Both the position numbers and the translations under genes were made by a program. Of a stretch of DNA of 31,869 nucleotides, positions 1 to 29,761 are shown in pieces; the first letter of the stretch is position 1, and each line of letters begins with the position of its first letter. The notes under the pieces were generated by a model that saw only the letters and a program-made list of their open reading frames with translations, was not told the origin of the DNA and did no database searches. Source of the stretch: Candidatus Aenigmatarchaeota archaeon (GTDB taxonomy: Archaea > Aenigmatarchaeota > Aenigmatarchaeia > JACPZZ01); NCBI GenBank assembly GCA_043806535.1, contig JAZDGV010000100.1, positions 1 through 31,869 of the forward strand. The letters are read 5' to 3'.

Positions 1-783
1 AAATCCCAATCAGACTTGAACAAGTTTTTGATGGAAATCAATCTTGAAATCACAAAGTCCAAGCTGAGAAAACCCGAGATTGACAAAATCGCGATGCAGA
101 CCGTCGGCATGATAGACGACCTTGACAAGATACTCAACCTCTTCGTGGAGAGGCTCCGCGAATGGTACGGCATGTATTTCCCGGAAATAAACGACCTCCT
201 GAAGAACCATGAAAGTTTCCTGGATTTTGTCGCGAACAAGACCCGCAGGGACCTTTTTGGAAAAGACGGCGCAAAACTCCGGTTTGAATCCGCGGGCATG
301 GAGTTGTCGGACGAGGATCTTCAGGAAATTAAAGAAACTTCAAAAGACGTCTACGGGCTCTATCAGAGGAGAAAGAATCTGGAAGCATATTTGAAGAGGA
401 CGATGGAGAGCATAGCGCCGAATGCGAGCGCCTTGGCTGGCGCGGACCTCGCGGCGCGTTTAGTGGCGAGAGCCGGAGGCTTGGACAAGCTCGCAAAAAT
501 GCCCTCGTCCACCATACAACTTCTCGGAAGCGAAAAGGCGCTGTTCAGGTTTCTCAAGGGTCAGGGAAAATCCCCGAAGCACGGAATAATATTCTTCCAC
601 CCCTCGATAATCAATTCCCCGATACCGGTGCGAGGAAAAGTCGCAAGGCTTCTGGCTTCAAAAATAGCGATTGCGGCGAGAATTGATTGCTACTCAAAAG
701 ACAACAGGGGCGCAAAGCTGAAGGCGGATTTTGAGACCGCCCTGGGCAAAATCGTTGAAGACTTCAAAAGGTCCAAAAGCTAA
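1..783 (+). CDS. nop5: Nop5/Nop56/58 C/D-box RNP protein (5' end outside the window)
   Basis: Frame is open from base 1. Nop-domain motifs LNLFVERLREWYG, LAKMPSSTIQLLGSEKALF, PKHGIIF and GKVARLLASKIAIAARID. Directly upstream of fibrillarin. Confidence 0.95.
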   Translation, partial: KSQSDLNKFLMEINLEITKSKLRKPEIDKIAMQTVGMIDDLDKILNLFVERLREWYGMYFPEINDLLKNHESFLDFVANKTRRDLFGKDGAKLRFESAGMELSDEDLQEIKETSKDVYGLYQRRKNLEAYLKRTMESIAPNASALAGADLAARLVARAGGLDKLAKMPSSTIQLLGSEKALFRFLKGQGKSPKHGIIFFHPSIINSPIPVRGKVARLLASKIAIAARIDCYSKDNRGAKLKADFETALGKIVEDFKRSKS

Positions 784-21385: not shown

Positions 21386-21522
21386 GCCGGGATCGCATAA
21401 CCAGGTAGTGCGCCAGTCTCGAATAAGCCTTTCTTTTGAAAAAGAAAGCCTTAATGGAAAGAAAACCTGCGAGAGAACTGGTGTGGCTCTGCCACTTATG
21501 GGTTCAAATCCCATTCCCGGCG
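21386..21522 (+). tRNA. tRNA-Ser(CGA) with a 52-nt intron at 37/38 (21424-21475)
   Basis: Acceptor stem GCCGGGA/TCCCGGC, G73, long variable arm, anticodon stem CCAGT/ACTGG, BHB central helix CTCG/CGAG. Confidence 0.93.
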
Positions 21523-21523
21523 C

Positions 21524-22359: not shown

Positions 22360-22482
22360 GGGCCCATGGTCTAGTGGCTAGGACGCCACCCTCACAATAA
22401 GCCTTTCTTTTGAAAGAAAGGTTAATCGAAAGAAAATAGTATGGGAACGGTGGAGATTCCGGTTCGATTCCGGGTGGGCCCA
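22360..22482 (+). tRNA. tRNA-Val(CAC) with a 51-nt intron at 37/38 (22397-22447)
   Basis: Acceptor stem GGGCCCA/TGGGCCC, A73, anticodon stem CCACC/GGTGG, BHB central helix CTCA/TGGG with bulges CA|A and AA|C. Confidence 0.92.
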
Positions 22483-22484
22483 AG

Positions 22485-22533
22485 CTACCCTTTTCTTTGG
22501 TAAAGAAAAGAGGTAAGGTATCGGAAAAGAAAC
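22485..22533 (+). repeat. tRNA-3'-flanking hairpin element, family A
   Basis: CTACCCTTTTCTTTGGTAAAGAAAAGAGGTAAGGTATCGGAAAAGAAAC; 47/50 positions match the copy at 29712-29761. Confidence 0.85.
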
Positions 22534-22572
22534 AAACGAAAGGAAAGGTTAGTTGCTAAGGAGGTGCCGATT

Positions 22573-22595
22573 GAAGCACATCGAAGATGTGCTTC
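22573..22595 (+). repeat. REP-like family B variant hairpin
   Basis: GAAGCACATC-gaa-GATGTGCTTC followed by GGT; same outer arm as the other family B copies. Confidence 0.6.
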
Positions 22596-22616
22596 GGTTT
22601 GCGCTTTCCTCGCAAT

Positions 22617-22689
22617 GGGCCTGTCGTCTAGCGGTTAGGACGTCACGCTTACACCGTGAAGGTCGCCAGTTCGAATCTGGCCGGGCCCA
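22617..22689 (+). tRNA. tRNA-Val(TAC), intronless
   Basis: 73-nt cloverleaf: GGGCCTG/CGGGCCC, loop CT-TAC-AC, T-arm GCCAG-TTCGAAT-CTGGC. Confidence 0.96.
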
Positions 22690-22691
22690 TG

Positions 22692-22741
22692 CTCCCCTTT
22701 TCTTTAAAAAAGAAAAGTGGTAAGCTATCCCAAAAGAAAAC
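22692..22741 (+). repeat. tRNA-3'-flanking hairpin element, family A (diverged copy)
   Basis: CTCCCCTTTTCTTTAAAAAAGAAAAGTGGTAAGCTATCCCAAAAGAAAAC, starting 2 nt after tRNA-Val(TAC). Confidence 0.8.
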
Positions 22742-22788
22742 GTAGGAAGGGTTAGCTACTAAGGGAAACCAAAGGTTTCCCTCGTAGA

Positions 22789-22899
22789 GGGCTGGTAGAT
22801 CAACGGTAGATCGCCACATTGGCAACAACCCTTTTAAAAAAAGGGTTGATCGAAAAACCACGCTTGTGGAGGCTTCGGGTTCGAATCCCGACCAGTCCA
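22789..22899 (+). tRNA. tRNA-Ala(GGC) with a 39-nt intron at 37/38 (22825-22863)
   Basis: G3:U70 wobble in the acceptor stem, A73, anticodon stem CCACA/TGTGG, relaxed BHB (TTGG/CCAC). Confidence 0.9.
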
Positions 22900-22995
22900 A
22901 TGCCCGATGAAGAAAACCTGTAATGGGCGGACTGAGGGCAACAACCACTTGGATATTAATTTTTAATTAAGCCAACAAAGTATAATTGTGGGCAT

Positions 22996-29588: not shown

Positions 29589-29711
29589 GAAACACCTTGT
29601 ATTTGGTTTGTTTCTGCATGACAAGAATGCTTTCTGTGATACAGATTCCACATTCTTGTCATAAACAATAAATTGCACTGGAAAATTAATAAATGGGTCT
29701 TTTGTCTATGT

Positions 29712-29761
29712 GTTTCTTTTCCGATAACTTACCGCTTTTCTTTACCAAAGAAAAGGGGTAG
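29712..29761 (-). repeat. tRNA-3'-flanking hairpin element, family A
   Basis: Minus strand reads CTACCCCTTTTCTTTGGTAAAGAAAAGCGGTAAGTTATCGGAAAAGAAAC, starting 1 nt after the tRNA-Ile discriminator base. Confidence 0.85.

Follow-up and report, generated by a model that had tools for sequence, protein, structure and literature searches.

We analysed a window of 31,869 nt, contig C100 of a metagenome-assembled genome (MAG) from a Candidatus Aenigmatarchaeota archaeon (G000; 564 kb, 66% complete), and in it the two spacers that separate the genes for tRNA-Val(CAC), tRNA-Val(TAC) and tRNA-Ala(GGC). Each spacer contains two structured repeat modules, referred to here as the A module and the G-box module, and both recur in other genomes. 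On balance, we think it probable that the spacers are juxtaposed members of a class-wide set of self-folding repeat modules, which are co-transcribed with the tRNAs and removed by RNase Z and RNase P as filler. They are probably not a dedicated RNA gene, since relatives with the same tRNAs lack the modules at these spacers.

The order to which G000 belongs is represented in our genome library by eight genomes of one family, and G000 is the sole member of its genus. Proteins encoded in the window have their best matches in Aenigmatarchaeota MAGs (46-54% identity), and in a search of sequencing runs the window sequence recurred only in groundwater and lake DNA metagenomes. Genomes are designated by G numbers and their contigs by C numbers.

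The A module is a pyrimidine/purine hairpin followed by a conserved tail, and it follows closely on the 3′ end of a tRNA or on a 5′ splice site. The G-box module consists of the motif GGAARGRTAG and a hairpin of ~32 nt, and leads directly up to a start codon, a 3′ splice site or the 5′ end of a tRNA. We searched for the modules with two covariance models: R1, for the G-box hairpin, was built from six cargo-free copies with spacer 1 left out, while R2 represents the A module and was run against 151 genomes of the class.

Spacer 1 (22483..22616, + strand) and spacer 2 (22690..22788, + strand) can be aligned end to end as an A hairpin, its tail, a linker of 5-9 nt, a G-box of the form GGAA(A/G)GGTTAG and a terminal hairpin, which holds nested cargo in spacer 1 and none in spacer 2. 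On the + strand, the first A module occupies 22488..22532 (hairpin 22488-22513, tail 22514-22532; R2 match at 22483-22532, 64.3 bits) and the second 22694..22739 (hairpin 22694-22720, tail 22721-22739; 71.8 bits). The A hairpin contains TTTTCTTT, and its loop in spacer 2 reads TTTAAA. The G-boxes follow on the same strand at 22542..22552 (GGAAAGGTTAG, recognised by pattern and by R1) and 22745..22755 (GGAAGGGTTAG). Each terminal hairpin stops 1 nt short of the next tRNA. The one ahead of tRNA-Val(TAC) (22553..22615, +; TTGC-TAAGGA...TCCT-C-GCAA) was seen both as an inverted repeat and by R1 and has base stem TTGC/GCAA and inner stem AGGA/TCCT; the one ahead of tRNA-Ala (22756..22787, +; CTAC-TAAGGGAAACC-AAA-GGTTTCCCT-C-GTAG) has base stem CTAC/GTAG, a 9-bp upper stem and the loop AAA, and scores 63.7 bits with R1. 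The same model recovers the spacer 1 hairpin across a 44-nt insert (28.9 bits, E about 2e-5), although that spacer had no part in building it. Together with the end-to-end alignment, this bears out the original observation that the two spacers are homologous over their full length. Both are more stable than shuffled sequences, with minimum free energies (MFE) of -49.7 kcal/mol (z -6.2) for spacer 1 and -32.3 kcal/mol (z -3.9) for spacer 2. The same is true of their reverse complements, as the spacers are palindromic, and folding energy therefore gives no strand call.

The stem of the G-box hairpin is under structural constraint. The exchange of TTGC/GCAA for CTAC/GTAG in the base stem, previously noted as a double compensatory change, does comprise two compensatory changes and fits a family-wide pattern, in which CCG/CGG, CCT/AGG and ACG/CGT are further variants. 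In an alignment of six sequences 94.7% of cells are paired and both sides have changed in 4 of 13 pairs; for 20 copies from three families the values are 92.7% and 7 of 13 pairs (36 cells). None of 500 shuffles matched the covariation score of the 20-copy alignment, and sliding the partner by 1-3 columns lowered pairing to 34-64%; these values are to be read with the caveat that the alignment was fitted to the model, which favours structure, and that the copies are related. While the stems vary, two sequence elements are almost invariant across the three families, the G-box and the TAAGG at the base of the upper stem.

Two further pairings within the spacers were considered and set aside. A pairing of the G-box with the A tail (‘hairpin 2’) is predicted for spacer 2 and for introns in G006 and G004, but is missing from the predictions for spacer 1, G007 and G002, and is for that reason not counted as conserved. 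For spacer 1 alone, the MFE fold pairs the G-box with the 5′ arm of the A hairpin; as the base of that hairpin varies without matching changes in the G-box, we treat this pairing as a side effect of purine/pyrimidine composition.

Beyond the window, R1 finds the G-box hairpin in G000 (4 copies), in G002, G004, G005, G006 and G007 and in two other families (G018 and G109), and R2 finds the A module in 45 of the 151 class genomes. G014, a member of another family, has 38 A matches, mostly intergenic, and many of its copies are 88-96% identical to the A module of spacer 2 over 46 nt. Within G000 all four G-box hairpins and all six A matches are located at tRNA genes. As leaders, G-box hairpins lie 0-3 nt before tRNA-Glu (C23) and tRNA-Ala(CGC) (C54) of G000, and equally close to tRNAs on contigs C95, C90 and C21 of G007 and C21 and C13 of G005; in G005:C13 one also precedes a C/D-like RNA. 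Nor are they confined to tRNAs, since the reading frames of GatB/E, PAC2 and Tyr/TrpRS (G018 and G006) have one ending 0-8 nt upstream of the start codon. About 21 of the 23 G-box hairpins examined are in sense to the neighbouring gene.

Both modules also occur inside tRNA genes, with the A module 5′ and the G-box hairpin 3′ within introns at position 37/38, as identified by ARAGORN. This arrangement was found in tRNA-Ala(CGC) of G006 (106 nt), tRNA-Pro(CGG) of G004 (111 nt) and tRNA-Asp(GTC) of G002 (166 nt, with extra hairpins). The same order is apparent by eye in what look like T-arm inserts of G109, for which ARAGORN gives no confirmation. An intron of tRNA-Arg(CCT) (G007:C28) consists of the G-box hairpin alone, which is also the form seen on C23 and C54 of G000, and the A module stands alone behind tRNA-Ile. 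The shared order in introns of sister genomes, together with a clean A difference within the MAG described below, supports the proposed link to a mobile element. The suggestion of a single full-length form fares less well: since the two halves occur apart, what was taken for a full-length element may be two modules side by side, each with its preferred position.

Extreme stacking of modules was observed in tRNA-Arg(TCT) of G007:C8, where an intron of ~223 nt combines a G-box hairpin in inverted orientation with a direct G-box and with a hairpin that four nested palindromes interrupt. We considered a split tRNA at this locus and rejected it, as the inverted G-box hairpin sits within a single tRNA-Arg gene and not a half gene. 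At a tRNA-Pro locus (G007:C90, ~142-230, minus strand) a tandem duplication of ~45 nt (AATAAATTAGGAGAAGTGTGATAAGRAAAGGGTAGCTACTAGGGA) directly precedes the G-box hairpin leader.

Genomes with identical tRNAs differ by gain, loss or replacement of the modules, which are dispensable and show rapid turnover. One metagenome contig of 538 nt (X4 record 24) carries tRNA-Val(TAC) and both tRNA-Ala exons with 0 differences. In it 114 other letters replace spacer 1, 29 nt (TGC and 26 letters, ending ...GTATGCGCC) replace spacer 2, and tRNA-Ala has a different intron, of 83 nt. Another record (X1 record 3) has an identical tRNA-Val between unrelated flanks, and B-type palindromes, of the kind nested in spacer 1, are all that the Val-Ala spacer contains in the sister genomes G001 and G003. 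A similar difference exists within the MAG itself. The window has a third A module, a 69-nt insert (29693..29761, - strand; R2 65.8 bits) located immediately 3′ of tRNA-Ile between two direct copies of CCCAT. In a pairwise alignment, the tRNA-Ile locus on contig C110 is ~99% identical to it and has the same downstream flank without the insert. Precisely at the 3′ end of a tRNA, the DNA of the two loci differs by an insertion or deletion. With many copies within and between genomes and presence/absence at otherwise identical sites, the modules are dispersed repeats comparable to miniature inverted-repeat transposable elements (MITEs) and repetitive extragenic palindromes (REPs). By inspection, the composite has no terminal inverted repeat.

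Several observations accompany this turnover. Contigs of G000 form pairs (C100/C110, C93/C106, C55/C57 and C19/C75) with near-identical tRNA genes and differing flanks, which means that the assembly is a strain composite or has recent duplicates; the pairs supply natural filled and empty sites. A 16-nt repeat flanks one A copy in G014: at locus L082 (G014:C1:31000-31800, ~345-470) an A module and CTAATATACAA... have the full tRNA on one side and 16 nt copied from a tRNA 5′ end (TGCTGATGTAGCTCAG) on the other, and these 16 nt could be a long target duplication or a leftover piece of exon. A second type of leader and trailer, with ...CACGTATGCGC before the tRNA and TGCGC(A/C)... after it, was seen in G000 (C32, C68, C110, C106, C10, C22 and C23), X1 and X4. 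Its two parts could pair across the tRNA ends, and it stands in for the A and G-box modules in relatives. Searches for transposase and reverse transcriptase recovered genes in some relatives, none of them linked to the repeats (Y1 TnpA in 2 of 7 relatives and TnpB in 6 of 7), and G000 itself gave only a sub-threshold TnpB-like match. The tRNA genes near this match (22 bits; G000:C54:2992-3141, - strand) are tRNA-Ile(GAT), at ~350 nt, and, at ~1.5 kb, the tRNA-Ala(CGC) with the G-box hairpin as its leader.

The tip of the spacer 1 hairpin is a repeat in its own right. As was first noted, it is a family B palindrome; the cargo at 22563..22606 (+ strand; core 22573-22595) proved to be one complete unit of that family, sharing core and flanks with 33 strict copies in the partial G000 genome (flanks GYGCC..NT / RRTYTGCGC). 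Six of the 33 lie within 200 nt of a tRNA, compared to about 2.7% of the genome that is so close. Other G-box hairpins carry one palindrome (G007:C21), two (G005:C21) or the four mentioned for G007:C8. As cargo types and insertion points (loop or 5′ arm) differ, these were separate insertions. The view of the spacers as modular, with an exchangeable nested repeat as apical cargo, is supported. Elsewhere in G000, six family B palindromes (contigs C39, C40, C50, C103 with two copies, and C104) share a fixed setting, namely an AATAAGTG-like word, the palindrome, AAATCRCAAC, ~15 nt and the Shine-Dalgarno-like AAGGTGAA. They are thus placed between a likely promoter and the ribosome site of a gene set, and this group looks like an operator or a 5′-UTR (untranslated region) hairpin.

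In the reading that we favour, the Val-Val-Ala cluster would be transcribed as a single precursor, RNase Z would cut behind each tRNA and RNase P ahead of the next, and the spacers would be freed as by-products. In genes of G000, TATA-type hexamers peak sharply at starts 32-27 nt before ATG. Spacer 1 contains none, the only candidate in spacer 2 is the TTTAAA of the A loop, 86 nt before tRNA-Ala, and the 29-nt spacer of the relative is too short for a promoter, which makes co-transcription the simplest reading. That release would fall to RNase Z and RNase P we infer from two observations. A scan for bulge-helix-bulge (BHB) motifs, which recovers the tRNA-Val(CAC) intron (h = 5) and is noisy in low-complexity tracts, found none at 22482/22616 or 22689/22788, and five of the seven sister genomes have an RNase P RNA. 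Of the claim that a conserved RNA of about 100-135 nt is released from a polycistronic pre-tRNA, the release is thus plausible, given the lack of a TATA-type hexamer in spacer 1 and the 29-nt spacer, whereas a conserved non-coding RNA (ncRNA) is not supported, the module being missing or replaced in X4, G001 and G003. Stems may have been conserved because an insert in a tRNA precursor would have to fold on itself to spare the folding of the tRNA, or else because the hairpin would be needed for the spread of the element. The RNase P RNAs of sister genomes deserve mention here. Matches at G001:C1:16723-17138, G003:C6:21069-21611 and G002:C5:3475-3928 span 416-543 nt against the 288 positions of the model, and most of the sister-genome matches score under the Rfam cut-off. 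Their length suggests large inserts, possibly of the same repeats.

A number of points weigh against this reading. That the cluster is co-transcribed, where it would be cut and what would become of the spacer RNA are each deduced from DNA, and RNase P RNA was not found in G000, which is 66% complete. The 5-nt repeat CCCAT at tRNA-Ile fits a target duplication on insertion as well as a deletion between microhomologies. The TTTTCTTT in the A hairpin could end transcription. A purely selfish DNA insert does not predict the bias towards sense orientation, which hints at a role in RNA or a promoter-like one, and a G-box that stays nearly constant while the stems vary argues that something reads its sequence. 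Nor does the reading account for the hairpin abutting the downstream start and for the TATA-like words that often precede the G-box in genus g2. These last four points keep alive two rivals, a promoter-bearing cassette and an RNA to which something binds.

The cassette, which we regard as unlikely, would combine terminator, promoter and leader: the A hairpin with its TTTTCTTT would end the upstream unit, a TATA-like stretch inside that hairpin or 3′ of it would start the next, and the G-box hairpin would head the new transcript. On that view, introns with the same order would in fact be the halves of a split tRNA lying side by side, which is what has been proposed for Aeropyrum pernix tRNA-Asp, whose adjacent halves come with a promoter-bearing ‘intron’ (PMC3218864). 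A modules do lie 1-5 nt behind tRNA 3′ ends, and T-runs follow most other tRNAs of G000, but the same A hairpins must be read through in working introns. TATA-like words precede the G-box by ~17-32 nt in stand-alone copies (G007:C95, G007:C90, G005:C21 and G018:C6), TATTTA, TATATA or TATAAA often abuts the G-box in genus g2, and TTTAAA forms the A loop of spacer 2, yet spacer 1 is devoid of such a hexamer and the upstream side of the A loop is pyrimidine-rich, unlike the flank of G000 promoters, which is A-rich. A promoter would be consistent with 21 of 23 copies lying in sense and with the position of TAAGG 26-30 nt before the downstream start, the distance at which TATA hexamers precede ATG in G000; cargo inserts, however, shift the distance to the gene by 30-60 nt, and the relative makes do with a spacer of 29 nt. 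A promoter also gives no account of compensatory changes in 7 of 13 stem pairs. We also considered the hairpin itself as the TATA box of leaderless tRNAs and rejected this, as the distance fits but the G-rich sequence, the spacing broken by cargo and the covariation stay unexplained. A functional stable RNA, that is a released spacer or an excised intron, linear or circular, that would act by way of its invariant motifs (the G-box and GGTAAG) and might for instance contact a protein or base-pair with a second RNA, seems to us quite improbable. It would account for the conservation of the G-box and TAAGG across three families while stems covary and for the sense-biased orientation; hairpins at both ends would shield it from exonucleases, and archaeal introns are known to yield stable circular RNAs (PMC4090602). 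Such a role sits poorly, however, with the absence or replacement of the module in close relatives (X4, X1, G001 and G003), its patchy distribution across the class and the very different RNA contexts of its copies. Nor do the spacers resemble a known small ncRNA. Rfam searches at the gathering threshold and up to an E-value of 5 returned only tRNAs and chance-level matches, with no snoRNA within the spacers, and inspection of both spacers found no C (RUGAUGA), D (CUGA) or ACA box and no K-turn signature. A kink-turn (K-turn), C/D or H/ACA reading of the hairpin's internal loop was likewise dropped, with neither a GA/AG tandem nor box motifs present.

Two further explanations are both highly improbable. 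Local tandem duplication of a unit made of tRNA-Val and its spacer, followed by divergence, draws on the 78% likeness of the two Val tRNAs and on a 74-nt direct repeat (81%) over the tRNA 3′ end and A hairpin with a spacing of 207 nt. However, genus g2 has the same Val(CAC)/Val(TAC) split, which is hence old, yet g2 spacers cannot be aligned with these. The A module of spacer 1 agrees with that of spacer 2 at only 42 of 53 positions but at 49 of 54 with the tRNA-Ile copy, which lies on the opposite strand at a distance of 7 kb, and for this reason we reject duplication as the source of the likeness between the spacers, which had been named as the outcome that would undo the original idea. In addition, another family has copies that share up to 96% identity with the A module of spacer 2, and contigs C23 and C54 bear the G-box hairpin as well. 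Cleavage by the splicing endonuclease, which would excise the spacers at BHB motifs formed across their ends, could be expected of sequences homologous to true introns (those of G006, G004 and G002 at position 37/38) in a lineage with many non-canonical introns. The scan that recovers the true Val(CAC) intron nevertheless gives no BHB that would cut at mature tRNA ends; the only strong pairings join one acceptor strand to another, and the resulting cuts would fall inside tRNA-Val(TAC).

The tRNA genes of the cluster carry related sequences. tRNA-Val(CAC) (22360..22482, +; Rfam tRNA, 51.4 bits) is interrupted at 37/38 by a 51-nt intron (22397-22447) bearing a short A-like hairpin, with a canonical BHB, a 5-bp anticodon stem and cuts after 22396 and 22447. 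tRNA-Val(TAC) (22617..22689, +; ARAGORN and Rfam, 66.4 bits) is intronless, and tRNA-Ala(GGC) (22789..22899, +; Rfam 56.7 bits) has a 39-nt intron, placed at position 37 by ARAGORN, which also bears an A-like hairpin and has a 25-nt block in common with the tRNA-Val(CAC) intron. A tRNA-Ser(CGA) with an intron is located upstream (~21386-21523). Directly 3′ of tRNA-Ala we noted a 38-nt C/D-box-like unit (22902-22939, +) composed of GCCC, GATGA, ~21 nt, CTGA and GGGC; its Rfam snoRNA match is at chance level only (E 1.1), and it is kept in metagenome contigs and in G005:C13, with the G-box hairpin ahead of it.

We tentatively suggest a broader possibility, without holding it to be probable: the modules may be self-folding elements that move as DNA and persist only in places from which RNA processing removes them, and copies in leaders, trailers and inter-tRNA spacers would form a reservoir that seeds new tRNA introns in this DPANN lineage. 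If true, this would name a concrete donor and route for the gain of archaeal tRNA introns, which recent work on Asgard archaea describes as an open question (bioRxiv 10.64898/2026.10.13.758758). In the papers that we read on archaeal tRNA introns we found no report of a donor outside tRNA exons or of filled versus empty sites, and no paper on tRNA introns of DPANN or Aenigmatarchaeota describing these modules. The occurrence of the modules as introns, trailers, leaders, spacers and mRNA leaders, the strain-level presence/absence and the 69-nt indel make the question of intron origin testable. There is also a caution for annotation, in that covarying, well-folding spacers in DPANN tRNA clusters need not be ncRNA genes.

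Bacterial REPs, bacterial interspersed mosaic elements (BIMEs) and MITE-type repeats such as Correia elements are short, non-coding, dispersed hairpins that nest in one another and are co-transcribed with their neighbours. The modules described here are likewise short, non-coding, hairpin-forming, dispersed and nesting, and would share co-transcription with neighbouring genes. Unlike these repeats, they form a composite without terminal inverted repeats, are strongly linked to tRNA-processing sites (10 of 10 copies in G000), are biased in orientation and have no dedicated transposase identified. In Thermoproteales, families of transposed tRNA introns recur in different tRNA genes and positions, their route of arrival being unknown (Fujishima et al. 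2010, summarised in PMC4090602, bioRxiv 10.64898/2026.10.13.758758). Our modules similarly recur as related intervening sequences across tRNA genes, but they also serve as trailers, leaders, inter-tRNA spacers and mRNA leaders, offer filled and empty DNA sites, and belong to a DPANN lineage. A sequence common to an intron and a tRNA-flanking stretch has a precedent in the leader of Nanoarchaeum equitans tRNA-Lys, which is 58% identical to a Pyrobaculum tRNA-Arg intron (PMC2237900); here, by contrast, no split tRNA is involved, and whole structured modules with many copies and covariation are shared. Finally, in Caldiarchaeum subterraneum a plasmid-like element with an integrase and direct repeats of tRNA fragments disrupts a tRNA gene at the strain level (PMC3293823). 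The inserts described here differ in being 45-70 nt long, in holding no gene and in having a repeat of at most 5 nt, but in both systems population heterogeneity at tRNA loci is read as a DNA-level gain of intervening sequence.

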